A stretch of DNA of 64,000 nucleotides from Dictyostelium discoideum (GCA_000004695.1 CM000152.2:640001-704000); one strand, 5' to 3'. Shown: positions 2,012-33,477, numbered from the stretch's first letter. The notes: generated from the sequence alone by a model not told the origin. Numbers and translations are program-made.

Positions 2012-2042
<31 letters not shown>

Positions 2043-3313: not shown

Positions 3314-3345
<32 letters not shown>

Positions 3346-3663
3346 TTTAATAAATAAATACGAGTGTTTAAACCTAAATAATATCAAAAAGTTTAATTTA
3401 ATGCGTTTAAAATAAAAACTACCACTATTTTAAAATATTATATAGACCATTACTACTACAATAATATTAATAAATATCACTACAAATCAATCAAAAAAAA
3501 AAAAAAAAAAAAAAAAAATAAAATAAAATTAAAAATAAAATAAAATAAAATAATTTAATAAAAAAAAAAAAAACAAAACAACCAGATAATATTATATCCA
3601 TTTTTTATTTCTTTTTATTATTATTATTATTTTTAATAAAAAAAAAGTAAAAAAACAAATAAT

Positions 3664-11153: not shown

Positions 11154-11817
11154 AAATTAAAAAGTATTAATTAAATATTTTATTATATATCAACTATAGT
11201 TGTCAATAAATGAAACTAAAACAAGTGAAATATTTGATATGTTTAATGAAAGATTTACAAGATTAATTTCTCAAGGTGAAAAATCAGAAAACAATCTTAT
11301 GTATATAGTTGATATTTTATTTGATATGATTTACAAGAGAGCAGGTACAGGTTTATTAAGATCGAAAGAGTCGGTACCAGATACAAATTATTCATTGTTT
11401 TTAACGAATCAATTCGTGGTATCCCTATCACTTTTGAAATTATTTAATATCAATATCATTCAGTATCTATTCAACAATATTCAACACAGTGAAAATACTA
11501 AAGAGCAAAGACTATTCTTGTTACACATTCTAATTCAACGTTGTAAAGATAGTGAAGATTTATTAAAAGTTGGTGGTATTGGATTTTTTAAGAATCTATT
11601 ATCGGATCTTTCAACTCCAATCGCTTACCATTCAAGTTACTTTTTATTGACCCAATTGGAAAATGATTCACCCGAACAATATCGTTCTATCTTGACTCGT
11701 TTACTTCAAAAAGCAAGAGATAACAATAATGAAAATTTACTTTCAAATCCATTTTTCCAAGTTCAAGGTATTGTTGAAATGTCACTTCAACAACCAATTC
11801 AAAATAAAAATTAAATA
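7938..11817 (+). CDS. uncharacterized low-complexity (poly-N/S/Q/H) protein with C-terminal helical (ARM/HEAT-like) region; 5 exons approx join(7938..8079,8247..8550,8641..9459,9540..11111,11200..11817)
   Basis: Five ORF-track segments (7938, 8282, 8535, 9779 and 11200) connect in frame through canonical GTATGT/GTATTT/GTAAGT donors and ...TAG/AAG/TAG acceptors. I verified the phases as 1, 2, 1 and 0. I recognise no named domain. The C-terminal part (GIQFILQLY..., VGGIGFFKNLLSDL...) looks alpha-helical repeat-like. Confidence 0.55.
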
Positions 11818-11889
11818 ATAATTAAAAAATAAATAAATAAAAAAAAAAAAAATAAAAAAATTTAAGCAAACAAATAAAAAAAAAAAAAA

Positions 11890-11953
11890 CCTATGATAAT
11901 AGTAAAAAATATCTATATTAATTAATATAGATATTTTTTACTATTATCATAGG
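11890..11953. other. 64-bp perfect palindrome (inverted repeat with no spacer) in the convergent 3' intergenic region
   Basis: cctatgataatagtaaaaaatatctatattaat|taatatagatattttttactattatcatagg equals its own reverse complement. It sits 73 bp downstream of the plus-strand gene stop at 11817 and at the 3' edge of the minus-strand PKS fragment. Confidence 0.9.
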
Positions 11954-11959
11954 TAATGA

Positions 11960-14900
11960 TAATTTATATAGATTATATGCTCCAACAACTTTTGGATCAT
12001 ATGTTCTATCTAAATGATTCTTATCAATATCTAATATTGGTGAATCAATATTCATAAATTGTTGCCAAATGAATAATTGATGCAACTGGTTCAACATTTT
12101 TATTATTATTGTAGAATGTATTGATTGAATTATTTAAATCATCATAGTTTGAATTTCTATTTTGGTTTATTAGTTTTTTAACTTCCCATTTACAACTTGA
12201 TTTTGAAATTATTATAATATCTTTTAAATGTTTTGGTGCATGATTAATAATCCATTTTGTAATAATTGGTGAAATACTAGTTTGACCAGTAATTAATAAA
12301 GTTGATGGTAATGAATTAATTTCATAATTTGTTTTGATAATGGTCTTATTAATTGTAGAGTTTGAAATAAATTGATCAAAGTTTTGGAAATCAACAACAA
12401 TTTTACCAATGTGTTTTCTATCATTAACATAATAAATTGCTTTTTTTGTTTTTTCGACATAAAATTCTGAAATTGGGATCATTTCTAATTTACTATTGCC
12501 AATATCTCTAAATTATTCTGATAAAATATTAGTAATTCTTGGATTATGTTTACAAACTCTTTCAATATCTATTGTATTATAACCAACATTAAATTTGAAA
12601 TTATTTAAATCAACATTATCATTATCAATTAATTGAGTCATTGATAAACATGAAATTCTTCCAATTTCACTCAATGCATCAAAATTATATTTCAAAAATT
12701 CAACTGATAAAGTATCTAAAATCAAATCAACACCCTTTCCATTAATTTCTTTAATTCTATCACTAAACCTTTTTGATAGTGAACTTGTTTCAGTTGAAAG
12801 TATTTTTGTAATAATATCACCATAATTTTCTAATAGATATTGTTTCTTTTCTTTTGATCCACCAATTGTTACAAAAACATTACCACAATGTTCTTTAGAT
12901 TTTAATAATTTCAATGCAGCCAAACCAACACCGCCACATGCCGAATGGATTAATACTGATTCATCCTTTTCCAATCTACCTAAATGATATAGTGAATAAT
13001 ATGAACTCATATATACCATTGGAATTGATGCTGGTTCAACAAATGATATATTGGTTGGTTTATGAACGAACTAAACGAATGTGGAATTAAACTGGCTACT
13101 TGCTCGTTTAATTTAAATTTGGTAACTTTAGAACCAACTTTTGTTATGATACCAGAACATTCCAAACCTAAAGGTGGATTATAGATATTTCTTTTTGCAA
13201 AAATTTCTTGTGGTAATAATGCTCTCGTTGTTAAATCAGTTCTAAAATAAAATTCAACTTTGTATTTATTTTTTGAACTTGGGAATAAATTTGTTTGTAA
13301 TTTATATCTATTTCCTTCAGTGATAAAAACTGGTAATTTTTTAAATTATGAATTAATATATCTTTTCGTTTGAAAATGTTCGATATATTATCAATGTATC
13401 CACTTCCTGGGAATAAAACTTTTCCTTTAACTCTATGATCATTTAAAAATTTATACATTTTATTTGATGTATCAATTATTGAATGATAAGTTTCGACACC
13501 ATTTATTGATTTTCTACCTTAAATATCAACTGATGGACCTTCTAAAATTTTCTTTTTACTTTTTAATGGATATGACCAATGGATTTCATCATCCCATTGA
13601 TATCTTGGTAGCGATGATGTTGAATCCTTATAGAATTTATCATTTAGTTCTTTTTGATTAAATTGACTTTCAAAATTTAAATTTAAACCAAATCTATTCA
13701 ACGACATGATTGTTGAATTAAAAGAATCAATTTGAGAAGACATCTTCTTATTTAAACTTGTCAAAATTAATGGTTTCAAATTTTTATCTGATGGGATTGA
13801 TTTTTTAATATAATATGCTAATGTTGGAGTTGGTGCTATCTCAATAATAACTGGGTTTTTAAATGATGAATCTTGTTGGTTATCTAAATATTCAAATATT
13901 GATTTAATTGCCTTATTGAATTGTACAGGATTTCTAATATAATTATAAATGTAATCAACATTCATTTGTGATTTTTCAGTTAATTGATCACCATAATGAG
14001 TTGAGAATAATACCTTCATTGGTTTATTTGCATATTTCATATTTATTAAATCTGGGTTATAGAAACCATCTTTAATAATTTCTTGTTTTGATGAATGGAA
14101 TGCAGTGAGTGAACTTAATAATGAAGAGAATATATTATTATTTTGTAAAATAGTTGACAATGATTTTAATTCATTTTCATCACCTGAAACTACGATTGAA
14201 TCTTCAGAATTAAAACATGAAATTTCTAAATTCGGATAACTATTTGAATATTTATTGATTCCTTTTCTCTTAAACCAATTGATAACATTCTACCCATCCT
14301 ACAGTTTTATTTTGAAGCATTGCTCTATAGTAAGAAATGGTGCATGCAGTTTCCAAATCAATAATATTTGAGCAATATGCGGCTGCAACTTCACCAAAGG
14401 AATGACCTAAAATAATTGATGGTTCAATACCCCAACTTTAATATAATTCAACTATTGAAATTTGTAAAAAAAAGAGATATGATTGTGCATTTATTGGTTA
14501 TTAATTTCAATACTATTTGCTGATAATGAATTAACATGTTGGAATACAGAATATTTAAAATGATTTGGTAACATTTTATCAACTTTTATTAATGTGTTTC
14601 TATATAATTCATTATTTTCATATAATTCATTATGCATACCAATATATTGAGGTCCTGCAAAAACAAATATGATTGATGTTTGTTTAACTGGTTTTGAAAT
14701 CTGAAATTGTTGATGGAGATAAAGTTATTGATTTTTCAATTTCATTTAAATCATTCCAATTATTTACCGATACAATATTACGAGCACCAGAAAATATTGT
14801 TTTTGATAAACAATGCTTTTTAACAAAATCTTTAAATTTCATTTTTCCAGAACATGAACCAATATTTTCTTTAATTGTATTTAAATATCTATCTAAAGAA

Positions 14901-15345
14901 TTTATTGAATTTGATGAAAATGGGATTAAATAATTTCTTTCACATTTTCACTTTTTATCTTTTTCAATAAATCTTGGAGGTTCTTCTAAAATTAAATGAA
15001 CATATGATCCAGACATACCAAAATTATTAATTCCAATTGCAACTGGTATTTTTAAATTGTTTGGAAAATCTTCTAATTCTGTTTGAACTTTTAAATTCCA
15101 TTCATCAATTTTAATTTTTGGATTGATTCTTTCAAAATGAATGTTTGGAATGAATTTTTTATATTTTAAACTTAAACAAACTTTAATAAATGAACCAACA
15201 CCACTTGCTGCTTCCATATGGCCAATGTTGGTTTTAACTGAACCAATTCTTAATGGATTTGATTTTGAATGATGATCTTTAAAAACCATTGAAACAGATT
15301 CTACCTCGGTTGGATCACCAGTTGGAGTACCATAATCCTATAATA
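11960..15345 (-). pseudogene. type I polyketide synthase fragment (C-terminal half of KS, then AT, DH, ER, KR-like); disrupted and 5'-truncated
   Basis: Reading the minus strand from high to low coordinates gives five domain segments. The KS segment is DYGTPTGDPTEVES...GSVKTNIGHMEAASG (15345 to 14948). The AT segment contains the active-site GHSFGE (about 14400) and IIEIAPTPTLAYYIKK. The DH segment has LNDHRVKGKVLFPGSGYID, an HxxxGxxxxP motif (about 13400). The ER segment has LIHSACGGVGLAALKLL (12960). The last segment is a degenerate KR-like stretch, LLITGQTSISP (12300). These segments lie in different frames separated by stops. An in-frame TAA at 13516-13518 sits just upstream of the DH motif. 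No KS N-terminal half or ACP is present, and upstream of 15345 the sequence is AT-rich non-coding. Confidence 0.65.
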
Positions 15346-15827
15346 AATTTTAATTTTAATAATATATATTTTATTAATTTTTAAATCATCTAAAAAAAAA
15401 AGAAAAAAAAAAAATTGTTGAAAAAAAAAAAAAAAAAAAGATAAAAATAACCCCACCACCACTTTATTAAAATATGAATATTTTTTTGTGGGATTTGAAA
15501 CCACAAATCGTAAAATTACATATATTTTTTATTTGGTTTGACACATGGTGTCTAAAATGAATTCAAATGAAAATATTATTTTAAATAAGAAAATATCATT
15601 AAATTTTAAAAAAATACTAAAATTTAATTGGTTTTTTTTTCAATATAAATTTGTTTTTTATTTTATTTTATTAAAATTAATTAATATTACAACAATGTGT
15701 ATAATCTATTGTTTTTTCAGACATTTGTCGTTACGTAATTTTTTTTTTTTTTTTATTTATTGTATTTTATTTTATTTTATTTAATTTTATTTTATTTTAT
15801 TTTATTTTATTTATTTTAGAGTTTTTC

Positions 15828-15858
<31 letters not shown>

Positions 15859-15950
15859 TAAAGTTTTAGTATTGAATTGTTACAAGAAATAATTTCTATC
15901 AAATAAAAAGAAATTTTAATTAATAACTTTTTATTTTAAAATTATTATTA

Positions 15951-18900
15951 TTAAGGAGAAGAATCGGCTCGATCTTTTAGAATTAAATTTAATAAAGAAT
16001 ATGAAGATGTTAAAGTTTTTCTATTTTTTCTCTTTTTATAAATAACAACCAAGGCTATAACTATTATTAAAATACCAGCTGGAGTTCCTATTGACAATGA
16101 AAGTATTAATGCTAAATGGTTTGGTCTATTATATTTTCCTCTGTCATCATAAAATGTTGGCTTGATTGGGAAAAATGAAAAATCATATTCATATCTCTGA
16201 TTTTCAATTGATTGTTCAATATATTCATTATTCAATTCTTTATTTATAGCATAATTATTATTATTAGGTATGATTTGATCTAATTGGAAATTAAAATTAA
16301 AAGTAAATGATTTAATTTCATGAGGTTTAATTTGAATAGTTTCAATTGTTTTGTTGTTTTCACCTTTATTCTCACCATCAATAATATTATTTGTTCCATT
16401 ATTTGAGAAAATAATTGATGATGGTTTTTCATTTATAAATGAATATTCTGATTCACCACATTTGACTGGGAATTTTTTATTTATTCTTGTTGAATATTCT
16501 AATTATTATTTTATTTTATTTTTTTTTAAAAAAAAAGTTAGTAAAAATTCTAATAAATAGAAAATAATAATTTTATAATGTACATACTATCAATTAAATT
16601 ATTTTTTGTTAATTTTAAAAAAGATAAACCAGTTTCAATAAAGTTTGATATTTCTAATTCGTTAAATAATGTTGATTTATCGGTATCAGTAGTAGATTGA
16701 GTATTTGAATCAACTTCATGAATATTGAATAATCTTAAACCGACTGTATTGTTTTTTAATGTTAATAATGATTGTAAATGAATATTTGAAGGTAATTGAT
16801 TTGATAATGGTGAATATTTTAATAAATAACCAGTTTGATTATTGTGTTTTTTGACAAACATAATTGGTTGATTTGTAATATGTAAACTTATTCTTTTTTC
16901 ATTTTGTAATTGATTATTAACCAAATCCATATTAAAGTATAATTTAGCATCACTTCTTCCAATATCTTTACTTGGCCAATTTACTCCTTTCCAATCATCA
17001 GTATCCATAGTTCTATGAATCATAATTTCCATTTCGCCATCTGATGGTGATGTTGCGCCAACTGATCTATCTACATAAACTGTATATTGATGATTATTAT
17101 TTTCTGAGGTTTCTTTTAATTTTATATAACCTAAAACTGGGTAATAATTTTGATTGACAGTTCTATCATGATTGTAAATTCTTTTTCTAGATTCTAAACC
17201 ATTATCAGTATAAAATATATCATCATTTTCAAGATCTTTTACTTTATAATTGATTGTTGTTTCTCTATTCATATCACCGTTAATTGAATAACCAGTTTCA
17301 ATGTAATTCTCTGTGATTAATGATTTGCTATTACTATTATCGATTTCATTGTTTTTATAAATTCTTTGAACTACAATCGATGTTACATTGCAACCATCAT
17401 CTACACCATATAACATTGTTAATTGAGATACTAATGGGCCATCGTGGTAGATGAATTTATCAGGGTTCTCTAAGAATCCGTGTTTTTTACCACCTTTAAC
17501 ATTGAAAATGTATGGACCACTCTTTTTAGTTGAATATTGATGGAATGTTTGTTCGATTGTTTTAATTTCATTTGAATTTTTATCAGTTATTTTACTTATT
17601 AAACCATTTGATTCGAATTCTACTTTGAATCTATTATTATTAAAATTAATTTCATTTCCTTTTTTCAATAGTTTTGGTTTTGATAAAATGGTATTTGGTT
17701 TTGAATCTTCATTACTAGAAATACTTAGATAATAAGTATTTAAACCTAATGGTGGTAAATTAATAATTGCAAATACAATATAATTATTTTCAATTGATTG
17801 ACAATTTGAATCATCTTGAATTGGTATTATTTGAATTTGAATTGTTTTATTTGATATAGCTTCAACCAATTGAATTGATTCTAATAATTGATTATCATTT
17901 TTATTAACTTTTATTCTAAATGAAACATGTTGGTTAACTTCCCAACCTAATGTATTGTGGAATACTAATGAATATTGATTATTTATTTCATTTGATAAAT
18001 CTATTACATTTTCAAAATTGAATGGTTCATTTGTACTGTCTGTATTTTCATTATTATTATTATCTTTATTTAATAAATATTCTAAAGAATTTGAAATGAT
18101 ATTATAATTTGAAATTCTTGATTTTTGTAATCTTTGGAAATTATCATTTAAAACAAATGATCTTGAAGTACCTGTAACAATATCATGATGTTGAACCAAT
18201 GCTATTGTATTTCTATTTTCATTTAATTGATTTGATAACGTTTGTAAATTATTAATATCGATTTGATTATTTGAATTTTCGCCAATTGCTAAAGTGTATA
18301 ATATATCTGATGATTTTTGTAAAAGACTTGATTCTCTAATCAATCTTTTTAACAATGGTCTTGTTGTATAATATCCTGTCCAATATTCTAAATCACCAGT
18401 TGAATATGGAAAGAAATCTTTATTATATAATGATAATGTTGATGAAAAACCTGTCTTTAAATTCTCCTCTACAGTTTTACCAAGTTTATTCATAAATTCG
18501 TCCTCTAAAGCAATGAAATATTCATCTATTGTTGCATATTTAATTTCTTTTATATTATACTTTTCTTTATTATCTTGAATAACTTTTAACCATTCTTTTG
18601 AAACTGAAAATTCATTTTTTGCATTTGAATATCTGAAATCATCACCCAATGGAATCATTAGTATGCTTGATTCTCTGGTATTTGATAAATCTTTAATATA
18701 TTTAGTGAATCCTTTAACACGCTCTTCTAATGAAAAATCTTTCTTTGGGTCAATATGCTTTGGATAATCATAATGAACATTTAATGTGGAAACTAACATT
18801 TGTGATTGTTCTCCTAATGATTCTGAACCTTTCCATATGAATTCCATTTCTTTGGCTGATTTCATATAAGATTTAACATCATCTGAAACACGATTAATAA

Positions 18901-19738
18901 TTAATCCTTTTATACCCATACTTGAAAAAATGGTTGGTGTTGATGATGAATATCCAAATGGATCGATTTGCCATGCATATTCTATTGTATAGTTAAGTGT
19001 ATCTTTTAACCATTGATGGCCTTGTGTCATTTGTGTTATAACATCATCAATTGTTGCTGTTGCTTCATCATTTTGTACCCATCCACCACTAATAAATGAT
19101 AGTTGTTTATTATTTATTAAATTTCTAACAATTTCTCTTTGATTTTCATTTCGGTCATTCCACCACCTACTAAAAAATCCACTGTGAGTGTGTAAAATAT
19201 AAAAAAAAGGAATAAAAAAAAAAATGGAAAAATAAAAAAAAGAAAAAGGGTGGTTAGTGGGAATAAATAAAAAAAAAATAATAATAATAATAAAGAAGTT
19301 GGAAAATATAAAAACCATACATTTCTACCCAATTAAATTTCTTTTCTTTATCTAAATTTAATTCATTCACAATACCTGATAAAATATATTGAACAACATG
19401 ATTATAATACCACTGTATTTAAAATAATTGTTAGAAAAGAAAATAAAAAAATGACTAATAATTAAAACTAAAAAAAACTCAATACAAACGTCATAATCTT
19501 GTAACCAACCACTATCACAATGAGAATGGGGTATTAAAAATATAGATAATTTTTCATCTTTTAAATCTCCATTTAATTGGAATATCTTTTTTAAACTTTG
19601 AGAATTATTATTATAATTTACTATTTCAAAATTTTCATTATAAATATTGATAATAAAAGTTGATAACAAAATCCATACTCCAATAACAAATATAATTTTA
19701 ATTAATTTGGTTTTATTCATTTCTTTTATTTTTAACAT
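15951..19738 (-). CDS. GH38 alpha-mannosidase (lysosomal/class II type) with C-terminal transmembrane anchor, copy A; 4 exons approx join(15951..16498,16588..19181,19321..19412,19490..19738)
   Basis: Exon 1 is MLKIKEMNKT (signal) followed by FLIPHSHCDSGWLQDYD, the GH38 HxHxDxGW metal-site motif. Exon 2 is WYYNHVVQYILSGIVNELNLDKEKKFNWVE. The large exon runs GFFSRWWNDRNENQREIV...ISGGWVQNDEA...LVQHHDIVTGTSR.... The last exon is ...NNEYIEQSIENQRYEYDF... and ends in the TM helix LILSLSIGTPAGILIIVIALVVIYKKRKNRK. Donors are GTTTGT, GTATGG and GTATGT. The total of 3483 nt is divisible by 3. Confidence 0.8.
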
Positions 19739-20401
19739 TTATTTTTGGATTTCAAAATAAAAAAAAATCATTGACATAAAAAACACCAAGAAAAAAAAAA
19801 AGTATTAAAAAATATAATATAAAAAAAAAAATTACACGAAAATAAAAAAAAAACAACACCAAAATAAAAAAAAATTTAATTTTTTGGAAAATATCGTCAT
19901 ATAGCAAAAAAAAAAAAATTGTGATGTTTCAAAAAGTAAAAAAACGTCATAAAAAAAACAAAATTCCTAAAAATTCAGACTATCAGACAAAAGTAAGTGA
20001 ATTGATTTCCTACCTTTTGAGGTTTTTATGTTTTAGATTGGGTGAGGAAATATTCGTAGAGAATTTAATTGTAAAAAAAAAAAAAATTTTAAATTAAAAA
20101 TAATAAAAATAAAATTAAAAAAAAAAAAACCTTAATATCCACAGGAAAATATCTTGGACTTTCAAGAAATTTTTTTTTTTACAACCTTTTTTTTCATTTT
20201 TTAAAAAACTCAATATTTTGGATGGTTTACAACCGCTGGAATATATGAAGATAAAAAATATTTTTTGTTTTTTTTTTTTTTTATTTTTATTTTTAGCTTA
20301 TTTTACATTTTTTTATTTTATTTTATTTTATTTTTTGATTTTTATTTTTATTTTGATTGTTTTTTTATTTTTTTATTTTTATTTTTAAATTATTATTATT
20401 T

Positions 20402-22587
20402 TTAAGGAGAATAATCAGTTTGGTCTTCTTGTTGAATTAAATTTGATGAAGAATTTGAAGATGTTAAAGTTTTTCTATTTTTTCTCTTTTTATAAGTAAC
20501 AACCAAGGCTATAACTATTATTAAAATACCAGCTGGAATTCCTATTGACAATGAAAGTATTAATGCTAAATGGTTTGGTCTATTATATTTTCCTCTGTCA
20601 TCATAAAATGTTGGCTTGATTGGGAAAAATGAAAAATCATATTCATATCTCTGATTTTCAATTGATTGTTCAATATATTCATTATTCAATTCTTTATTTA
20701 TAGCATACTTATTATTATTATTATTATTATTAGGTATGATTTGATCTAATTGGAAATTAAAATTAAAAGTAAATGATTTAATTTCATGAGGTTTAATTTG
20801 AATAGTTTCAATTGTTTTGTTGTTTTCACCTTTATTCTCACCATCAATAATATTATTTGTTCCATTATTTGAGAAAATAATTGATGATGGTTTTTCATTT
20901 ATAAATGAATATTCTGATTCACCACATTTGATTGGAAATTTTTTATTTATTCTTGTTGAAAATTCTAATTATTATTTTATTAATTTTTTTTAAAAAAAAA
21001 AAAAAGTTAGTTAAATTCTAAATATATATATATAATATTGTACATACTATCAATTAAATTATTTTTTGTTAATTTTAAAAAAGATAAACCAGTTTCAATA
21101 AAGTTTGATATTTCTAATTCGTTAAATAATGTTGATTTATCGGTATCAGTAGTAGATTGAGTATTTGAATCAACTTCATGAATATTGAATAATCTTAAAC
21201 CGACTGTATTGTTTTTTAATGTTAATAATGATTGTAAATGAATATTTGAAGGTAATTGATTTGATAATGGTGAATATTTTAATAAATAACCAGTTTGATT
21301 ATTGTGTTTTTTGACAAACATAATTGGTTGATTTGTAATATGTAAACTTATTCTTTTTTCATTTTGTAATTGATTATTAACCAAATCCATATTAAAGTAT
21401 AATTTAGCATCACTTCTTCCAATGTCTTTACTTGGCCAATTTACTCCTTTCCAATCATCAGTATCCATAGTTCTATGAATCATAATTTCCATTTCGCCAT
21501 CTGATGGTGATGTTGCGCCAACTGACCTATCTACATAAACTGTATATTGATGATTATTATTTTCTGAGGTTTCTTTTAATTTTATATAACCTAAAACTGG
21601 GTAATAATTTTGATTGACGCTTCTATCATGATTGTAAATTCTTTTTCTAGATTCTAAACCATTATCAGTATAAAATATATCATCATTTTCAAGATCTTTT
21701 ACTTTATAATTGATTGTTGTTTCTCTATTCATATCACCGTTAATTGAATAACCAGTTTCAATGTAATTCTCTGTGATTAATGATTTGCTATTACTATTAT
21801 TGATTTCATTATTATTTTTATAAATTCTTTGAACTACAATCGATGTTACATTACAATAATCATCTACACCATATAACATTGTTAATTGAGATACTAATGG
21901 GCCATCGTGGTAGATGAATTTATCAGGGTTCTCTAAGAATCCGTGTTTTTTACCACCTTTAACATTGAAAATGTATGGACCACTCTTTTTAGTTGAATAT
22001 TGATGGAATGTTTGTTCGATTGTTTTAATTTCATTTGAATTTTTATCAGTTATTTTACTTATTAAACCATTTGATTCGAATTCTACTTTGAATCTATTAT
22101 TATTAAAATTAATTTCATTTCCTTTTTTCAATAATTTTGGTTTTGATAAATAGGTGAAATTTGATTTTGAATCTTCGCTATTAGCAATACTTAAATAATA
22201 AGTATTTAAACCTAATGGTGGTAAATTAATAATTGCAAATACAATATAATTATTTTCAATTGATTGACAATTTGAATCATCTTGAATTGGTATTATTTGA
22301 ATTTGAATTGTTTTATTTGATATAGCTTCAACCAATTGAATTGATTCTAATAATTGATTATCATTTTTATTAACTTTTATTCTAAATGAAACATGTTGGT
22401 TAACTTCCCAACCTAATGTATTGTGGAATACTAATGAATATTGATTATTTGATTCATTTGATAAATCTATTGCATTTTCAAAATTGAATGGTTCACTTTT
22501 ATTTACAGTATTATTATTATTATTACTACTACCACTACCACTACTACTGCTACTACCTGTTGTACTAATACTATTTGTATTTTTAAG

Positions 22588-22642
<55 letters not shown>

Positions 22643-24359
22643 TTATTATTATTATTATTTGTTTTGTTATTACTTTTATTTAATAAATATTCTAAAGAAT
22701 TTGAAATGATATTATAATTTGAAATTCTTGATTTTTGTAATCTTTGGAAATTATCATTTAAAACAAATGATCTTGAAGTACCTGTAACAATATCATGATG
22801 TTGAACCAATGCTATTGTATTTCTATTTTCATTTAATTGATTTGATAACGTTTGTAAATTATTAATATCGATTTGATTATTTGAATTTTCGCCAATTGCT
22901 AAAGTGTATAATATATCTGATGATTTTTGTAAAAGACTTGATTCTCTAATCAATCTTTTTAACAATGGTCTTGTTGTATAATATCCTGTCCAATATTCTA
23001 AATTACCAGTTGAATATGGAAAGAAATCTTTATTATATAATGACAATGCTGATACCTCATCATCACCATCACTAAAAGTTTCAGTGTAAACATTTTGTTT
23101 TCTACTTTTACCAAATTTATTATTTCTCAAGAAACTATCCTCCAAAGCAATGAAATATTCATCTAAAGTTGCATATTTAATTTCTTTGATATTGTAATAT
23201 TCTTTATTATCTTGTAAAGCTTTTACCCACTCTTTTGAAACTGAAAATTCAGTTTTTGCATTTGAATATCTGAAATCATCACCTAATGGAATCATTAGTA
23301 TGTTTGACTCTCTAGTTTTTGATAAATCATTGAGATATTTAGTGAATCCTTTGATACGATCATTTAATGAAAAATCTTTCTTTGGGTCAATATGTTTTGG
23401 ATAATCATAATGGATATTTAATGTGGAAACTAACATTTGTGATTGTTCTCCTAATGATTCTGAACCTTTCCATATGAATTCCATTTCTTTGACTGATTTC
23501 ATATAAGATTTAACATCATTTGAAACACGATTAATAACTAATCCTTTTATACCCATACTTGAAAAAATGGTTGGTGTTGATGATGAATATCCAAATGGAT
23601 CGATTTGCCATGCATACTCTACTGTATAGTTAAGTGTATCTTTTAACCATTGATGGCCTTGTGTCATTTGTGTTATAACATCATCAATTGTTGCTGTTGC
23701 TTCATCATTTTGTACCCATCCACCACTAATAAATGATAATTGTTTATTATTTATTAAATTTCTAACAATTTCTTTTTGAATTTCATTTTGGTCATTCCAC
23801 CACCTACTAAAAAATCCACTGTGTGTGAAATATAAAATAAAAAAATGAAAAAAAAAAAAAAAAAAATGAAAAAGGTGGTTAGTGGGAAAATGAAAAAAAA
23901 AAAAAAAAAAAAAAAGTAAAAATATTTAATGAAACGTTACATTTCTACCCAATTAAATTTCTTTTCTTTATCTAAATTTAATTCATTAACAACACCAGAT
24001 AAAATATATTGAACAATATTATAATAATATCCCTATCAAAAAAAAAAAAAAAAAATATGTTAAAAAATTTTAAAAAAAAGAAATAATTTATTAAAATTTA
24101 TATATTTAATACAAACATCATAATCTTGTAACCAACCACCATCGCAATGAGAATGAGGTATTAAAAATACAGATAATTTTTTGTCATCCCCGTTTTCTTT
24201 GTTATTAATTTGATTTATTGTTTTTAAACTTCGTTTTTCGAATTTATTGATTCCAAAAGTTGATTTATAATCGTAATTATTGTATATTATTAAAAAAGTG
24301 AATACCAAAATCCAAATACCAAAAACCCATATAATTTTAACAAATTTACTACTTTCCAT
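20402..24359 (-). CDS. GH38 alpha-mannosidase with C-terminal transmembrane anchor, copy B (tandem paralog); 4 exons approx join(20402..20964,21048..23818,23941..24032,24117..24359)
   Basis: The exon/intron architecture and splice phases match copy A, and long stretches are near-identical at the nucleotide level. It differs by a poly-N/S insertion (about 22490-22680, NNNNNNNNKNNNN...SSSSSGSGSS) and by a variant block FLRNNKFGKSRKQNVYTETFSDGDDEV. The N-terminal exon has HSHCDGGWLQDYD. The total of 3669 nt is divisible by 3. Confidence 0.8.
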
Positions 24360-24444
24360 TTTTTTAAAATATCATTATTAATAAAGTTATTATATTATAA
24401 AAGAAGGTTTTATTTTTTTATTTTTTATTTTTTATTTTTTATTT

Positions 24445-24475
<31 letters not shown>

Positions 24476-24783
24476 ACATATATTAAAAATAAAAACACAA
24501 TTTTTTTGGGAAGGGAAAAGAAAAAATATAAAAAAAAAACAAAAATTAACAATAGTGACTATAAAATTAAAATTAATTAAAAAAAATAATAAAAAAAATT
24601 TACAAAACACATTTTTAAAACACTTTACTAAAAAGGTATTAATTGGGGTGTGGTAAATTTAAAAATTTCTTTAAAATTACTTAATATTTTTAAAAATTTT
24701 TATTTTTTTTATTTTTTTATTTTATTTTAAATGTTCCGATCTTATATAAAAAAAGGAAAAATAAAATAAAAAATAAAAAAAGG

Positions 24784-24819
<36 letters not shown>

Positions 24820-25493
24820 ATTTTTTTTTTTTTTTTTTTTTTTTTAAACAATGACTTGGTTTTATTTATTTTTATTATTATTATTTCAGTATATAAAAAT
24901 ACACAAAATGATATAAATTATATAAAAAATGAATGTAAACATTTTGTTTTTTTAATTTTTTTTTTAATCAAAATTTTATTTTTAATTCATTTTTGTAATT
25001 GTTTTTTTTTTTTCAAAGTGGGGAAATATAAAAAAATAGCTGAATTGGTATATTTTTTTTTATAAAAACCATTTTAAATAAAATCAAATAATTTGGTTGT
25101 TTTTTTTTTTTTTTCCTATATAAGAAATAGTATGGGAAGATTTTCTGAGAAACCACCACCAATAAAGATGAAGATGGTGAAGATGATTATTATTTTGGTG
25201 GTGATAATAGTAAAAATAGTGATGATAATGATAATGATGATGATAATGATATTATTTAATAATCAATTTAAATCTAATAAATAATATTTAAATTTATTTA
25301 TTTTCACCACAAATAAATCAAGACAATTTTTTTTTTTTTTTTATAAAAAATAATAGTGACCTAAAAATAATGAAAAAAAATCTATAAATATATATTTTTA
25401 TTTTATTAAACCTTTTTTTTATTTTATTTTTAATTTTTTGTTTTTTAATTTTTTTTATTTAAAAATGATATTATCTTCTTTTAAAATGCCAAG

Positions 25494-25653
25494 GTGCATA
25501 GATAAATCTTTCCTTCTCTGGCATTTGATTAGTATTGATTCATTTTATTACTTTAGAAATAAAATTTTAATATGATGGTGATCAACCTTTCTTTATGATA
25601 TAGTGCATAGATTAATCTTTCCTTTCTCTATCATTTGATTGGTATTGATTCAT
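25494..25653. repeat. two ~50-bp imperfect direct repeats (gtgcatagatWaatctttcctt...catttgattRgtattgattcat) separated by ~60 bp
   Basis: Copy 1 lies at about 25494-25543 and copy 2 at about 25603-25653. They sit about 700 bp upstream of the piggyBac-like ORF and about 250 bp upstream of a possible 5' exon. I saw no inverted partner downstream of the ORF. Confidence 0.7.
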
Positions 25654-26349
25654 ATATTATTATTATTATTATTATCTAGATTAAAATTGAATGTAAACCA
25701 TTTTATTTGGAAAAAAACTAATTTATTAATTGACTTTTAACACAAAAAATAAAAAAATTTTTCACATTTTTTTACGCCTTAAAAAATTAAAAAAAAAAAA
25801 AAAAATTAATAAAAATTCAGATATTTATTTTTGAAAACAAATATTAAAATGAAAGTGTGTATTTTTTTTTTTTTTTTTTTTTTTATTGAACATTTAACCA
25901 TTCTATAAATAAAATGACAAAAAAATCAGAAAAAATAAACAAAGAAAGTAATATTTCAAAAACAATAATTACAAATGCCCAAATTGATCAAAAAATGAGA
26001 AATGAGTATGTTAATTTGTGATCTTTTTTGTTTTTTAAAATTTATAATTATTAAATTTATTTTTCATTAAATAACATTTTCAATTTTTTATATAATTTGT
26101 TGTATTATTTTTTATTTTTTTAAAAAAGGGAAGCTGAAAAATTATTTTGGATTTTTAATAATAAAGTTAGACCAATTAATTATAGCGAAATTGTTGAAAA
26201 CACTACACCAAGAAAATCATCAATAAATAGAGAAAAGATTGAAAGTGAAAATAATGGTCAGGTTTATAATGAATTATTTTTTTTTAAATTGTTATTAAAT
26301 GAAGATTTATCAAAATTTTTAATTTCATTAATTAATACAAATCTTAGAC

Positions 26350-27855
26350 ATGAGAGGGAGAAAAAAATTAGATAAAGGGAAGGATATTTCAAGATTAAAT
26401 GATTTAACCGATATTACATTCTGGAAATTTATAACTGATTATTTAAAAAATATTTATTCAAATAAAAACAATGATAAGATACCACCTGAATTAATTAATT
26501 TAAAAATGATGGATCACAATAGATATTCAGCAGTACATAATGTTTTGGATATGAAAAGTCATAGATTTGAAGAATATTGTGAAATATTTATGAACAGTGC
26601 ATTGAAATATATTAATATTGGTAACGTTCTCAATTGTGATGAAACAATATACGCATATTATGGGAAAGATGCTATTAAAGATCATATATTGATTAATAAT
26701 GATAGCAAACCCCATTCAGTCGGAATTGAAGCATATAGTCTAACAACCAAATTGAATATTAGTAATTGTCCATATGTAATTAGTTATGGTCCAAGAACAC
26801 CAGAAAACTGTCAATCTCCTTTCAATTCATTAAAAACCCTTTTGGATAATTTACATTCAAAATATAATTGGGAGGATCCAAGGAATAACTTAATCGTATG
26901 TTGCGATAGTGCCTTTGCATTAGTAAATAATAAAGAATGTTTAGATGAATTGAAATGTCGTATTTTATCCTCAACAAGGAAGAGTGGCGTGACTGTTCCT
27001 CAAGAAATTAAAATATTCGTCAAACCTTTATTAACCATACATAAAACATTCCTTTTTTATGATGAAAGCACAGGACTATTGTACGAGTATACCAAAAATA
27101 CCGCTGGTCATATCAATTGCATTGCAACAAATCTATATTCAAGATATTCAAACCCATATGTGGAAATTAATAATAATCTAAATATAGAACAATTTGCAAC
27201 TATTGGAAATTTATTTCGTTTTTCAAAAAAAGAATTAGAACTAATTTTTGTTGGTGAGACACTGCATGGGACAACATTGGAAATATTAAATGGCAAATAT
27301 AAAACTAACTTTGTAAAACCACCATGTGGTCCTTTTTGGAACGAACAAATGTTGAAGAAATTATCAGCTGAACACATAGCTCAAATATATAATGATAAAT
27401 ACAAAAAAGAAAACAACAATCTTAACAAAAACGACAAAATTAAAAAAATATTAGAACCATTGGATAGCACTCAAGATGGTGGGATATATGATAAAAACAA
27501 AAATTATTCCAAGAAGGAACTACAAGATTTAAAAATAAAAGTTATTGGTACTCATCAGAATCGTTCCCAAATGATTCATGATCAATATATTTTCTGGTAC
27601 AACCTTGTAGACATCACAGACAAACGTTACTATGCTACAATTAGAGGTAGCTCTTCCCACTCGTATACTAAATTATTTATATTAGGTGGTTTGTTTGATT
27701 TAATACTAAATTCATATTCTCTGCACCGTGAATATCATGAAATGGAATTAGAATGTAAAAATCCAGAAAATCAACCTCCGGAAATAATTCAAACAATAAA
27801 TAAATTTGTTGAATCCCTCATTTTTCAATTTCATGAATTAAAAGAATTACAATAA
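26350..27855 (+). CDS. piggyBac-transposase-like protein (DDE_Tnp_1_7-like core), probably domesticated or inactive
   Basis: This is a single 501-aa ORF. Three blocks match the piggyBac core: LNCDETIYAYYGKDAIKD, KPHSVGIEAYSL and LIVCCDSAFALVNNKECL. The corresponding piggyBac blocks are TIDEQLLGFRGR (first Asp), KPxKYGIKI and ITCDNWFTSIPLAKNLL (second Asp). The region aligning to the third Asp block (YNQTKGGVDTLDQ) reads YEYTKNTAGHINC with no Asp. The piggyBac C-terminal Cys-rich domain is absent. Possible short upstream exons exist at about 25915-26007 and 26124-26264. Confidence 0.6.
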   Translation: MRGRKKLDKGKDISRLNDLTDITFWKFITDYLKNIYSNKNNDKIPPELINLKMMDHNRYSAVHNVLDMKSHRFEEYCEIFMNSALKYINIGNVLNCDETIYAYYGKDAIKDHILINNDSKPHSVGIEAYSLTTKLNISNCPYVISYGPRTPENCQSPFNSLKTLLDNLHSKYNWEDPRNNLIVCCDSAFALVNNKECLDELKCRILSSTRKSGVTVPQEIKIFVKPLLTIHKTFLFYDESTGLLYEYTKNTAGHINCIATNLYSRYSNPYVEINNNLNIEQFATIGNLFRFSKKELELIFVGETLHGTTLEILNGKYKTNFVKPPCGPFWNEQMLKKLSAEHIAQIYNDKYKKENNNLNKNDKIKKILEPLDSTQDGGIYDKNKNYSKKELQDLKIKVIGTHQNRSQMIHDQYIFWYNLVDITDKRYYATIRGSSSHSYTKLFILGGLFDLILNSYSLHREYHEMELECKNPENQPPEIIQTINKFVESLIFQFHELKELQ

Positions 27856-28484
27856 ATCAATTTACAATCAATAAAACTGTTTTAATTATTTTTTTTATTT
27901 TTTTTTTATTTTTTTTATTTTTTTTTTTGAAATTTTTTTTTTTTTTTAATATTAAAAAATGTGAAAATTTTTTTTATTTTTTGTGTTAAAAGTCAGTAAT
28001 AAAAAAAAAAATTATTAAAGTTAGATTTAAATTTTAATTTATTTTTTATTATTTATTTTTTATTATTTGTTTTTTTTTTATTAACTTTACCATTTTTTAT
28101 TTTATTTTAAACAAACAATTGACTTTTTATCTAATTCTTTTTAATTGTTAGAGTTAGATTTACTTTTTTTTTTTCTATTTGTTATTTATTTTTTTTTTTT
28201 ACATTTGCTTGAATGATAATTTTTTTTTTTACTCTATTTATACTTGATCATTTTTTAAATTTTAAATTATTTGAAAATAAATAAAAGAAATTTTTTTTTT
28301 TTTAAACTTTAAAAAAAAGAATGGTATTACATTCATTTTTATTTTTTTTCCATTTTTTAAATTATTTTTTTTTTCAATTTCTCACAATTTTAAAAAAAAA
28401 ATAAAAAATAAAAATAAAAAAATAAAAAAATTTATTTAACAACAAATAAAAAGAATTAATTCTAACAAAGAAATTATTTATGCG

Positions 28485-28520
<36 letters not shown>

Positions 28521-28575
28521 ATTTGTAAACTTATTATTTTCATTAATTTTATTTTATTTTATTTTCACTTTAGTT

Positions 28576-31500
28576 TTATTTTTTACTTTTACCAAAAAAT
28601 CTTGAGGAAGATTTTTTTTCATCTTTTTTCTTGGATTTATTATCTTCATCGATTAAGTTATTATCCAATTCGATGATAGTTTTAGTAGGGATTGAATTAT
28701 TACCTTGAAGATGATTATAGGATAAAGAGATAGTTGAGGAGGATCTAATTGGAGATGATTGGAAAGATAAAGAAGCAGTATGAGAACGACGTGGTTTCAA
28801 AGGGAATAACTCTTTCAAAGAGTCAATTCTATCTTGAATTTGTTGATGTAAAACCTGATGAAGTATTTTCTCTTCTGGATCGAAAATTTCGAGATCTGAT
28901 TGATTAAAGTATAACTGTTTCCAAACCTTGAATCTCTTTATGGAGCAATCAGGAAAGATGACATCACGCTCCTTTATGCCGGTTGGCTGATAGAGAGGGT
29001 TGATGTACTCTTTTAGATTGCCGTCCATCTCTGCCCAAAGACTGATGGTTTTGCCATAGATATGGTTTTGCACTCTCTCTTTCTCTGTGTTGAATAAAAA
29101 GTTACCATATTTGCCACTGTAGGAATGATAAAGTATAGTTTTCAAAAAGTTTGCATTAAATTCGAATTTGCTTGGAAATTGATGAATGATTTGGTAGCAT
29201 GCCTCAATGAATTGGTAGAGTATGGGTGATTGCTCACTCTCGTCTTTACCATGAACTTGACCACAACGTTGAGCGAATTTATGACCGAAACTAAGCCACT
29301 CCTTTTCAATTAGGATTTGAAAGCCTCTAATGGTTCTAAAGTATGGGTCTAGCAAAAGTTCAGCCAATGAGACCAATTGTGATGTTCTATCCCATCCATC
29401 ACTACAATGTACCAATACATTGTGATGTTGTAAATGAATTAGTTTTGCCAATCTAGTTGCACCTTGAATCACCAATTTAATATGACCAAACCAACCACTA
29501 GATTCCAATTGATTGAACCAGCCATCTTCCTTATCAATGGATGATACTGCTGCATCTTTAATCTTCCAAAGGGAATGTCTCATTGAATGAATATTTGCAA
29601 TATTTAAAAACTCTAATGTACAACCTGGATAATTATTTAATATCTCCCATCCTGCACCTTTTGCACGATTACCAACTGCATTTGCATATGGTCTACAATC
29701 TAATATATACAATGTTCTATCTGAACTATTATTTTCTTTATTACTACCACTACCGCTACCTCCGCTACCTCCACTACTACCACTACCAGCAGTACTTGTC
29801 ATACGAATTGAATTTAATAAATTTTCATCCTCAGTTGAACGATTACCACCAATGCCAACCATTGGCTGACTACAACGAGTGATTGAGCATTTATTAGACC
29901 AATGTCTATAGGAGAGTACTGGTATTCTACCTTTACTACGAAATTGTGCAACACTTTTCAATTGTTCATCAGTGATTGATTCTGGAACACCCATTAATCC
30001 TGGATAACTATCACAAATGAAATAGTTATAATTTGCATCTGATACTCTCCAATCTGGTGATGGTACACCCATACGTGCATATTCATCACGTGCACTATAC
30101 AATGTCCATCCTAATCCAACCAACTCCAATCTAGTATACTCTTGTCTAAGATTATAACAAAACAATGTTGTTGGACTTGTACTTTGATATTGTTCAATAC
30201 ATCCTCTAACATCTTTTAAACTTGAATTACTCTTATCAAATGAAATACTATGAATTCTATAATCCTTACAAATGAAATTTAATCTATATGAAAATTCACC
30301 ACCACCTTGTTTCTTTTTACCATTTTTAGTTAATTTTGAAATAGTATGTAATGAAAAATGTTTCTTTTTTAAAAAAAAAAAATTAAAAAAAAAAAAATTT
30401 AAATTAATATTATATATATATAAATATATATATTATAAAGTATATACTTACCACATATGGTTCATTCTTTGTTGTATAACCATAAAAAATAATTTGAAAG
30501 TTTGTTAAATATAATGAACCTTTTATAAATTCATCTTCAATTTCACTAAATTGATGATTATTCATATTGTTATTATTTATTGCTGTATTTTTTCTATTGT
30601 TATTATTATTTGATGGTTGTGTTGGAGTTGAAGTTGTCGTTGTTGTTGTTGTCGTTGTTGTTGATGATGAACCATTTTGTTGAATTCTTGAATTATCAAC
30701 TAAATGATAATTACAAGATTCAACTTTTAATAATAATTTCTCACCATCTGATAATTGAACATGATCAGGTAATTGAATGGTTCTAAATGTGTTTACTTGA
30801 TTTCTTATATTTCTAATCATTTCACCATAAAGTAATACTGTATTCACAGAGGTTTCAAAAATTAATTTCTTTTTAACTATTAATATCTTTGCTTTAATAT
30901 TATCTAAACATTTATGAATAAGTTGGTGCATTGATTCAATACTTTTAACTGATCTTTCATCTTTTTATTATTATTAAAAAAAAAAATATATATATTACAA
31001 TTAGTATTTTTTAAAATAATGACATTTTTGATTTGTGTGTGTGTGTGCGTGTGATTGTAATATGGTGTGGGTGGTTTTTTTTTACATACTTTTTTTACGA
31101 TTTGTTTTTGAATGAATAATATTAATTAATTCAGATTCTAAATTTGAATTAACACTTTCTTTACCATTTGAAAGATTTGATAAATTTATTGTGGCACCAC
31201 CACCACTAACTGATAAAGATGAAGAGGATGCTGATTGACGTAATGATTTTTGATTTTGATCATTAGAGTTTGATAATGATGGTGATGATTGTTGTTGTTG
31301 TGTTGGTAAACTTGGTAAATTTAAAGCAGCACCAAGAGAACCAGTTGATGTATTGGCTGTGATTGCACTACCACCATTAGCATTATTGTTATTTGATAAA
31401 TCTAAACTACTATTATTTGCACTATTATTACCACTACCACTGCCATTTGAACTATTATCAGTTGAATTATTGATATCCTCTAAAATCTTTTCAATTTCAA

Positions 31501-31801
31501 TTAAAGTTTCAGAGATTTTCATAATATCTTTAAATGATTGTGATACTTGTTTCTCCCTTTTCATTTCTGATATTTTAAAAATGATTGTATCAATAGTTTT
31601 ACTACTGATATCTTTTAATTTCTCCATTTTCTCATCGGGTCCCAATCCAGACAAATTTGAACTACTTCTTGGTTTATTACTTGGTGATAATAATTGTGAT
31701 AAAGAACCTTGAGTTTGAAGTGATTGTGTTGGTGGTAACCTAGATGATGTTGATGTTGATGTTGAGGTTGATGTTGTTGTTGCTGTTGTATTATTACTCA
31801 T
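28576..31801 (-). CDS. myotubularin-family phosphoinositide 3-phosphatase; 3 exons approx join(28576..30363,30452..30960,31090..31801)
   Basis: The last exon carries the myotubularin CX5R active site VHCSDGWDRTSQLVSLAELLLDPYFRTIRGFQILIEKEWLSFGHKF. The middle exon carries the GRAM-type motif GSLYLTNFQIIFYG. The first exon is S/T/N-rich. The junctions are a GTATGT donor in phase 1 and a GTAAGT donor in phase 0. The total of 3009 nt is divisible by 3 and gives about 1002 aa. Confidence 0.85.
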
Positions 31802-32610: not shown

Positions 32611-33477
32611 ATGGCAGATATTGGAGGAAAAGTTTATTTTGTAAGTGGAGCTAGTGGAGGGATTGGGTTAGAGATGGTTATTCAATTATTAGGACAAGGT
32701 ATGAGGGTTGCAGCAACTAGTAGAGATAAAAAGAAATTAATTCAAGTTTTAAAAGAGAGGGATAATAGTTTGATTAGAGATGATAATTTCATTGCAGTTG
32801 AAATGGATTTAAGTTCAGAACATTCAATAAAGAAAGCAATCTCTGAATGTATTGAAAAATTTAAGACAATTTATTGTGTTATCAATAACAGTGGATATGC
32901 AATCAAAGGTACAATTGAAGAACTAAGTTTAAAAGAGATTCAAGAGAATTTCAACATCAATTGTTTCGGACCAATGATGGTGATTCATCATTTCATGCCA
33001 CATCTTAAATGTAAACCATATAGTGATCCAAGAATCATCAATGTATCATCAGTAGTTGGATTTAACGGTGATTTAATGAACCGATTTCCATGTTATGTCT
33101 CAAGTAAATTTGCATTGGACGGATTCACTGAATCAATTTCAAATGACTTGAAAAAGTATGATATCAAATGTACAACGGTCAAACCTGGTTATTTTATAAC
33201 ACCATTCAATGATCATATCATTCATTCAAAGGGTGAACAACCATTAACAGATCATGAAAAAGAAATTCTTGAAAAATATAATGCAACAAAACCAAAAAAT
33301 AATGGTAGTGACCCAATTAAAGGTGCAAGAGCTATCGTTGAAATATCTTTAAATCCAGAACCACCATTACATTTATTCTTAGGAAGTGATTCATTAAGAC
33401 ATGCTGATTCAAAAATTCAAAAAGTTCAATCTGATATTAATAAATGGATTGAATTAACAAAATCAACTGATAATTAA
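32611..33477 (+). CDS. short-chain dehydrogenase/reductase (classical SDR)
   Basis: This is a single exon. It has GKVYFVSGASGGIGLEMV (the TGxxxGxG cofactor motif), INNSGY (NNAG) and SS...YVSSKFALDGFTESIS (the catalytic Ser-Tyr-xxx-Lys). Confidence 0.9.
   Translation: MADIGGKVYFVSGASGGIGLEMVIQLLGQGMRVAATSRDKKKLIQVLKERDNSLIRDDNFIAVEMDLSSEHSIKKAISECIEKFKTIYCVINNSGYAIKGTIEELSLKEIQENFNINCFGPMMVIHHFMPHLKCKPYSDPRIINVSSVVGFNGDLMNRFPCYVSSKFALDGFTESISNDLKKYDIKCTTVKPGYFITPFNDHIIHSKGEQPLTDHEKEILEKYNATKPKNNGSDPIKGARAIVEISLNPEPPLHLFLGSDSLRHADSKIQKVQSDINKWIELTKSTDN

Follow-up and report, generated by a model that had tools for sequence, protein, structure and literature searches.

A tandem pair of putatively membrane-anchored GH38 alpha-mannosidase genes in Dictyostelium discoideum, probably kept alike by gene conversion

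Among the class II alpha-mannosidases of glycoside hydrolase family 38 (GH38), Golgi mannosidase II is itself anchored in the membrane, at its N-terminus, and the lysosomal and vacuolar enzymes are soluble. One member of the family from Dictyostelium discoideum, manE, is already annotated, B-type counterparts of its neighboring paralog are annotated in newer genomes, and gene conversion between paralogs is a well-known process; in the literature searched we found no experimental papers on manE or its paralog. Here we compare these described systems with a tandem pair of GH38 alpha-mannosidase genes at positions 15951-24359 of a 64,000-nucleotide stretch of D. discoideum DNA (GCA_000004695.1 CM000152.2:640001-704000), which we refer to as the window. 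The two genes lie head-to-tail, both on the minus strand; we call manE copy A and its upstream paralog copy B. We consider it probable that they are an old duplicate under DNA-level gene conversion, encoding anchored class II GH38 enzymes whose cores are alike and whose ends differ.

Gene structure and age of the duplication

The window has a G+C content of ~22% and contains exact matches to D. discoideum proteins; it is AX4-type chromosome 3 sequence, because copy A becomes identical to the manE product MANE_DICDI after two gene-model edits. Copy A (MANE_DICDI, DDB_G0278651; 15951-19738, minus strand) has exons at 19738-19490, 19412-19321, 19181-16588 and 16498-15951, measuring 249, 92, 2594 and 548 nt, for a coding sequence of 3483 nt and a product of 1160 amino acids (aa) counted from the first ATG. 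Copy B (20402-24359, minus strand) has exons at 24359-24117, 24032-23941, 23818-21048 and 20964-20402, measuring 243, 92, 2771 and 563 nt, with an intact open reading frame (ORF), a coding sequence of 3669 nt and a product of 1222 aa. All six introns run from GT to AG and are 77-139 nt long, with phases 0, 2 and 1 in both copies, and an AT-rich spacer of 663 bp (19739-20401) extends from the copy B stop codon to the copy A start codon. The spliced models thus agree with an earlier reading of the window, made by a model from the sequence and referred to here as the original prediction, which had described a tandem GH38 pair with coding sequences of about 3.5-3.7 kb, four exons, a 92-nt second exon and shared splice phases.

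A blastn comparison of the A region (15500-20150) with the B region (20150-24800) returned three collinear blocks on the same strand, with E = 0 for the two longest: A 15928-18059 with B 20376-22525 (95.9%), A 18054-18443 with B 22664-23053 (98.5%), and A 18501-19554 with B 23138-24181 (89.0%). Between them lie a segment found only in B (~22526-22663) and a block that cannot be aligned (A 18444-18500, B 23054-23137). Identity between the copies rises along the gene, from 70% in exon 1 and 65% in intron 1, through 91% in exon 2 (91.3% over its 92 nt; A 19321-19412, B 23941-24032, minus strand) and 77% in intron 2, to 96.3% in exon 3 and 97.3% in exon 4, with intron 3 at 81%; the two proteins are 92.1% identical over 1147 aligned positions. 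The introns, at 65-81%, are thus well short of the near-identity that the original prediction had extended to them. The 300-nt flanks are only ~57% identical, and the repeat unit is therefore essentially the gene body.

To place the duplication in time, we aligned ten genomic gene sequences, the A and B copies of five genomes: the AX4-type window, a second D. discoideum genome, D. citrinum, D. firmibasis and D. dimigraforme. The order of myotubularin-related gene, B-type gene and A-type gene is the same in all five, which represent four species, and the B-type gene is intact in each. In the first 600 alignment columns the A copies form one clade (100% bootstrap) and the B copies another (94%), and the encoded N-termini begin MNKTK... 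in A types and ME(S/K)... in B types. Given this shared synteny and the grouping of the 5' ends by orthology, the duplication is older than the split of these four species.

Evidence for gene conversion and the copy-specific segments

The gene body records a different history from the 5' ends. In sliding windows, paralogs within a genome are 96-100% identical and orthologs between species 80-92%, and trees of the body place the two copies of each genome together with 99-100% support. This extends to the comparison of AX4 with the second D. discoideum genome, for which a neighbor-joining tree of columns 1500-3600 joins the AX4 copies at 99% and the other two at 100%. We then counted site patterns in sets of four sequences, AX4 A and B against A and B of one other genome, scoring sites that group the copies by genome, by orthology, or in the third way. 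These numbered 273:24:8 for D. citrinum, 364:27:7 for D. firmibasis, 196:48:6 for D. dimigraforme and 36:157:1 for the second D. discoideum genome, where the third pattern accounts for 1 of 194 sites. In this last comparison the by-genome sites are clustered, with runs (in copy A coordinates) at 18341-18197, 17590-17438, 17126-16688 and 16419-16050; runs of 11-12 consecutive by-genome sites are bordered by orthology runs of 7-12 sites. The site patterns thus suggest that copy A carries, between 16050 and 18341 (minus strand), conversion tracts younger than the split of the two D. discoideum genomes. Orthology runs interrupt these tracts at intron 3 (16574-16495) and resume in the tail codons (16001-15961), after the last converted run. 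Introns were in part converted along with the exons: in D. citrinum the paralogs share the 3' half of intron 2, and in D. firmibasis they share intron 3. Because of this partial homogenization we take the conversion to have acted at the level of DNA, and we rejected conversion mediated by cDNA.

Recurrent and ongoing interlocus gene conversion thus appears to keep the copies alike, an alternative that the original prediction had raised beside a very recent duplication and that fares much better in this comparison. A duplication too young for the copies to have diverged would agree with the 96-97% identity of exons 3 and 4 and with the longest exact run shared by A and B, which is 385 nt; however, synteny of the pair extends over four species, identity in exon 1 is only 70%, the 5' ends form distinct A and B clades across species, and a B-specific N-terminus, linker block and tail are common to several species. 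A recent origin is therefore extremely improbable, and the description of the copies as fresh paralogs falls with it. One may postulate instead that purifying selection on the catalytic body has kept old paralogs alike with no exchange between them; indeed, the body encodes a conserved enzyme, and the ratio of nonsynonymous to synonymous divergence (dN/dS) is below 1 throughout the comparison of A with B. Synonymous divergence (dS) has collapsed as well, however, from 0.55 in exons 1-2 to 0.17 at residues 115-370 and 0.028 at residues 371-1160, and orthologs differ by 8-20% in the same region in which paralogs differ by 0-4%. The large excess of by-genome over orthology sites in the three other species, the rarity of the third pattern and the homogenized parts of introns in two species also argue against selection as the sole cause, and we give that explanation hardly any weight. 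Under gene conversion, repeated DNA-level events since the duplication would have homogenized exons 3 and 4 over most of their length in each lineage and would have carried on after the two D. discoideum genomes diverged. The 5' end, from exon 1 through intron 2, would largely have been spared and have retained sequence specific to each copy, as would intron 3, the tail codons and two loops at the surface. The outcome would be two enzymes with near-identical catalytic cores and different N-terminal anchors and stems, loops and cytosolic tails.

Differences between the A and B proteins are indeed concentrated in the N-terminal anchor and stem, a linker block, a poly-N/poly-S-G loop and the cytosolic tail. 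The loop, which follows the GH38 middle domain, makes B a net 48 aa longer than A (22526-22663, minus strand); the original prediction had rightly noted a poly-N/poly-S insertion here, although it put the length at about 55 aa and the position near 22490-22680. The length of the poly-N loop varies among all genomes and copies, including AX4 B and the B copy of the second D. discoideum genome, and it therefore fits replication slippage at a simple repeat, as had been proposed. In B, the linker that joins the GH38 N-terminal domain to the middle domain contains the block SFLRNNKFGKSRKQNVYTETFSDGDDEVSA (23054-23137, minus strand), which is 9 aa longer than its A-type counterpart (18444-18500, minus strand). 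A replaced block had been predicted at about 23050-23120 and is present; it had been taken for a fresh change, but the B type occurs in the B copies of D. discoideum, D. firmibasis and D. dimigraforme, and the block is therefore an old feature of B. The B copy of D. citrinum carries the A type, its own block having been overwritten. At the C-terminus, all four species retain the B tail ...SNSSSNLIEQE..DYSP, and the A tails vary; that of AX4 manE contains YSLL, which matches the YxxPhi sorting motif, and that of D. citrinum A has become B-like. As a separate observation, intron 3 of D. citrinum B (L002) contains an (AAT)n expansion of ~270 nt that is missing from the nine other gene copies.

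Enzyme class, membrane anchoring and likely function

All three Pfam domains of GH38 (N-terminal, middle and C-terminal) are recognized in both copies, at E-values between 5e-63 and 4e-14. PF01074, PF09261 and PF07748 score 213, 61 and 54 bits in copy A and 207.8, 61 and 53.9 bits in copy B, against cut-offs of 25, 31.1 and 25. The motifs HSHCD, WQIDPFGY, PLGDDFRY and QHHD are present in both and align with HSHND, IDPFGH, PLGDDFRF and QHHD of Drosophila Golgi mannosidase II (dGMII); in both copies zinc ligands lie in HSHCD and QHHD, the nucleophile Asp in WQIDPFGY and the acid/base Asp in PLGDDFRY. In an alignment of 44 homologs, H65, H67, D181 and H440 are invariant and D69, D289 and D441 nearly so. 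We obtained an AlphaFold2 model for the ortholog P0001 (96% identical), with a mean predicted local distance difference test score (pLDDT) of 83 and a predicted template modeling score (pTM) of 0.85. Foldseek matched this model over its full length to Golgi mannosidase II (E = 2e-71, target TM-score 0.77) and to jack bean mannosidase (E = 3e-63, TM-score 0.81), across ~1100 alignment columns. The pair are accordingly class II GH38 enzymes that look catalytically competent, and family membership suggests that both are zinc-dependent, retaining alpha-mannosidases.

Copy A is manE: its best database match is the cluster containing MANE_DICDI (Alpha-mannosidase E, Q1ZXI8, DDB_G0278651) of D. discoideum AX4, and when its first 6 aa are removed together with 31 aa from exon 3 it equals MANE_DICDI (P0123) exactly. 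The reference protein (1123 aa) starts at the second ATG (19720), whereas our model starts at the first, and its exon 3 begins at 19088 rather than at 19181, so that the 93 nt between (19089-19181, minus strand), encoding the 31 aa FFSRWWNDRNENQREIVRNLINNKQLSFISG (FFSRWW...SFISG), are treated as intron. These residues very likely belong to exon 3, because they align without gaps to dGMII, contain a Trp conserved in at least 90% of the 44 homologs, are included in newer gene models from other strains (P0001, P0121) and have a pLDDT above 90 in the predicted structure. As the segment is conserved across GH38 and present in the newer models, the reference manE is probably mis-spliced, with a misplaced acceptor site.

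Each protein consists of a short basic N-terminus, a hydrophobic segment of 19-22 residues, the complete GH38 body, the conserved juxtamembrane stretch YEYDFSFFPIKPTFYDDRGKYNRP, a single C-terminal helix, KKRKNRK as a stop-transfer cluster and a tail. The N-terminal segment of copy A, LIKIIFVIGVWILLSTFIINIY (19640-19705, minus strand), has a Kyte-Doolittle 19-residue maximum of 2.64 and a basic flank on its N-terminal side; that of copy B (24282-24344, minus strand) reaches 2.57. Near the C-terminus both copies contain LALILSLSIG(T/I)PAGILIIVIALVV(I/T)Y, followed by KKRKNRK and ~21 further residues. The helix spans residues 1107-1132 in copy A (16038-16115, minus strand; Kyte-Doolittle maximum 2.67), with KKRKNRK and a 21-residue tail directly after it (15954-16037, minus strand). 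In copy B hydropathy and conservation place it at residues 1168-1193 (20492-20569, minus strand), before KKRKNRK and the B-type tail ...SSNSSSNLIQQEDQTDYSP (20405-20491, minus strand) that is kept in all four species. The C-terminal maxima are thus ~2.7 in both copies, and 6 of the 12 residues downstream are basic. AlphaFold2 places helices at residues 2-35 and 1107-1137 of P0001, and all ten gene copies in the five genomes preserve the C-terminal segment. Hydropathy, structure prediction and conservation therefore concur with the predicted transmembrane helix and basic tail at the end of both copies.

The anchor depends on exon 4, which encodes the last GH38 beta-strands, including the IQIKPHEIKSFTF motif with which soluble relatives end at their extreme C-terminus, as well as the membrane helix. 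Since it carries the terminal beta-strands, splicing of exon 4 is needed to complete the enzyme. The exon 3-4 junction, whose use had been singled out by the original prediction as decisive for anchoring, is the same in the reference manE model and in five independent gene models, and in relatives known from transcriptomes a single ORF encodes both the catalytic domain and a C-terminal membrane helix. For the N-terminal segment we favor an uncleaved anchor over a signal peptide, because it is 19-22 residues long and has no obvious small-residue cleavage site; if so, both ends of the protein would be cytosolic. By the positive-inside rule, the catalytic body would be lumenal or extracellular and the C-terminal tail cytosolic. 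A type II topology, with the N-terminal anchor as the sole membrane segment, does not accommodate the second, C-terminal helix, and a soluble lumenal protein does not accommodate that helix and its basic cluster, which the lysosomal-type matches lack.

We next considered where the pair falls within the family, using a neighbor-joining tree of 69 sequences and 783 columns (MAFFT FFT-NS-2 alignment, 100 bootstraps). A dictyostelid clade containing the pair received 100% support. A separate lysosomal clade (100%), which includes another Dictyostelium protein of 1009 aa, and a clade of animal and plant Golgi mannosidase II (99-100%) both exclude the pair and its dictyostelid relatives, and Golgi mannosidase II groups with protist proteins that have a C-terminal helix (90%). 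Midpoint rooting placed the dictyostelid clade at the root beside another AT-rich dictyostelid clade, a position that we treated as long-branch or compositional attraction. In mean blastp scores the dictyostelid clade matches the Golgi mannosidase II clade at 264 bits, no higher than it matches lysosomal types, and neither PF21260 nor PF17677, Pfam domains of the lysosomal type, is recorded for the pair's proteins. The pair is thus neither a lysosomal enzyme of the manA type nor a canonical Golgi mannosidase II.

The C-terminal helix is widespread among its relatives. It is present in 11 of the 13 members of the dictyostelid clade, including all six D. purpureum paralogs, in relatives from Tieghemostelium and Polysphondylium, and in most of the nearest protist matches, the top non-dictyostelid ones with it including transcriptome ORFs and proteins of Balamuthia, Spongospora and Plasmodiophora. 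Among representative matches to the ortholog P0001, it occurs in 16 of the top 25, in 6 of the 25 that follow and in 7 of the other 94. The anchor therefore looks like an inheritance from a wider protist group and not a peculiarity of the manE pair, and the contrast that had been drawn with soluble lysosomal GH38 enzymes is misplaced, as the pair lies outside the lysosomal clade. For protist GH38 proteins with a C-terminal helix we found no described function in the literature searched, nor papers on C-terminally anchored GH38 enzymes. The six D. purpureum paralogs (P0006-P0011) share 37-47% identity with manE, and a single 162-kb contig carries three of them; the family has therefore expanded there independently.

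Two other accounts of the pair bear on how many enzymes it yields and how they are held. Copy B could be a pseudogene, decaying or not expressed, that looks intact because of conversion from manE, leaving one functional enzyme; manE has an AX4 protein in the collection searched and copy B has none, and the copy B loop contains a long poly-N/poly-S insert. Homopolymer inserts are common in functional Dictyostelium proteins, however, and the four-exon ORF of copy B is intact and its splice sites are canonical, each of the five genomes has an intact B-type gene, and the B-type tail and N-terminus are kept across four species. In the unconverted exons 1-2, moreover, dN/dS is 0.32, and both copy lineages are therefore constrained. 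We regard a pseudogene as improbable, and the evidence supports the view that both copies look functional. The hydrophobic stretch near the C-terminus might instead be a glycosylphosphatidylinositol (GPI) attachment signal, or be absent from the mature protein, which would make the enzyme lipid-anchored or soluble; it is, after all, one lone hydrophobic segment close to the C-terminus. GPI signals terminate in their hydrophobic stretch, however, whereas here KKRKNRK and ~21 hydrophilic residues follow, related protist proteins show the same succession of helix and basic cluster, and the exon 3-4 junction is used by the reference manE and the five independent models. This possibility is very unlikely, less credible still than a pseudogene.

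Our reading of the locus as an old, converting pair of anchored class II enzymes must nevertheless be held with some caution, as several points count against it. No AX4 protein for copy B was recovered by exact look-up or full search of a collection of 15 billion proteins, where its best match is ACTFIR_007847 of the second D. discoideum genome (95% identical); the reference annotation may omit copy B or flag it as a pseudogene, and conversion could keep a non-functional copy intact in appearance across the converted part. The topology may be either type I or anchored at both ends. In the neighbor-joining tree the dictyostelid clade is a long branch whose attachment is tentative, and by mean blastp it is nearest to the protist C-terminal-helix group (355 bits, against 264-285 for other groups), although that group is the nearest for every other group too. 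An endolysosomal or surface location would be equally possible, and the substrates, judging from family and pathway, are likely to be alpha-1,3/1,6-linked, and possibly alpha-1,2-linked, mannoses of N-glycans, cleaved with no need for N-acetylglucosaminyl (GlcNAc) transferase I (GlcNAc-TI). This last expectation rests on GH38 membership and on the reported absence of the GlcNAc-TI pathway from Dictyostelium.

That pathway is reported to be absent from D. discoideum and D. purpureum (PMC11795075), and a passage of the same source, citing Sharkey and Kornfeld 1991, puts late-stage truncated N-glycans down to high Golgi mannosidase activity. In the literature searched we found no gene assigned to the mannosidase activity of late N-glycan trimming in Dictyostelium. 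Dependence in vivo on GlcNAcMan5GlcNAc2, the product of GlcNAc-TI and the substrate of Golgi mannosidase II, is unlikely, and a membrane-tethered, GlcNAc-TI-independent class II mannosidase would be a reasonable candidate role for the pair. Any functional difference between A and B most likely concerns expression or membrane sorting and not chemistry. More speculatively, the pair may belong to a widespread, uncharacterized protist GH38 lineage tethered at the C-terminus, or possibly at both ends, may supply the membrane-bound, GlcNAc-TI-independent mannosidases that truncate N-glycans late in development, and may use its tails to sort one enzyme to two compartments; taken as a whole we find this rather doubtful. 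If true, conversion would keep the cores identical while selection preserves different anchor, stem and tail sequences, and the YSLL tail of manE and the ...NLIEQE..DYSP tail of copy B could send one enzyme to two membrane compartments.

Neighboring DNA and comparison with known systems

Farther from the pair lie a myotubularin-related phosphatase gene (28576-31801, minus strand), a short-chain dehydrogenase gene (32611-33477, plus strand) and an S28 serine carboxypeptidase gene (4203-5132, plus strand), all in the same order in the other four genomes. Directly downstream of manE is an AX4-specific stretch (11926-15845) that has no counterpart in those four. It contains a string of short ORFs (12045-15337, minus strand) in the domain order of a polyketide synthase (PKS): the C-terminal part of a ketosynthase (14951-15337), an acyltransferase (13519-14574), and dehydratase-like (13231-13458), enoylreductase-like (12513-13019) and ketoreductase-like (12045-12482) pieces, all on the minus strand. 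This string is a truncated and decayed PKS remnant, which an old chimeric protein model (P0124) joined to manE. A second AX4-specific insertion, of ~3.5 kb (25033-28517), separates copy B from the myotubularin-related gene and includes an ORF of 501 aa (26350-27855, plus strand). This ORF has no Pfam match, and its only relatives are multi-copy D. discoideum 'hypothetical proteins' (81-100% identical, the best cluster having 13 members); the insertion may be a lineage-specific mobile element. A repeat search of 11500-29000 returned only the gene duplication and low-complexity AT matches, with no terminal repeats around the flanking insertions. We also observed that collinear DNA of the second D. 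discoideum genome (L001, GCA_054859385.1) is only ~90-94% identical to window positions 2333-32960. This is far more divergent than expected within one species, and that genome may therefore represent a cryptic species or a mislabeled isolate.

The locus does not overturn current understanding, and its value is in part practical. It supplies a corrected manE model with 31 further conserved residues of the catalytic domain, and it draws attention to an intact copy B whose reference protein is apparently missing. About 3 kb of A and B is 96-100% identical, which matters for short-read mapping, knock-out design and GH38 trees; gene trees built from the converted part would show the history of conversion and not that of the duplication. 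The locus also points to an unstudied group of C-terminally anchored protist GH38 enzymes, to which the activity that trims N-glycans in Dictyostelium development may belong.

Of the described enzymes, dGMII (PDB 1HTY; MAN2A1/MAN2A2 type) comes closest to the pair, both in sequence (239 bits) and, by Foldseek E-value, in structure, and its zinc ligands are the same, as are its nucleophile and acid/base Asp residues. It has ~70 residues between two aligned stretches whose counterparts in the pair are separated by only ~43. Membrane binding, an N-terminal hydrophobic segment and a lumenal catalytic domain are common to dGMII and the pair; the latter differs in its extra C-terminal helix and tail, in a stem of only ~30 residues, and in belonging to an organism reported to lack the GlcNAc-TI pathway, which supplies Golgi mannosidase II with its substrate (PMC11795075). 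The lysosomal and vacuolar class II enzymes (bovine lysosomal alpha-mannosidase, 1O7D; jack bean, 6B9O; MAN2B1/manA type) have the same fold and a sequence score of 222 bits, but they are soluble, whereas each protein of the pair has one membrane segment at either end. Uncharacterized protist GH38 proteins that carry a C-terminal helix, such as the Balamuthia 'Alpha-mannosidase 2' (P0026), those of Plasmodiophora (P0044) and Spongospora (P0040) and many sequences from transcriptomes or metagenomes, are the best non-dictyostelid matches (450 bits at most) and have the same N-terminal segment, GH38 body, C-terminal helix and basic cluster, although identity to the pair is only ~30%. As an instance of concerted evolution, the locus is a clean five-genome case with sharply bounded segments that appear to escape conversion. 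It shares with tandem paralogs of this kind in general an old duplication, grouping by genome, mosaic tracts, homogenized synonymous sites and divergent ends; particular to the manE pair is that the escaping segments coincide with the putative anchor and stem, two loops, intron 3 and the cytosolic tail.

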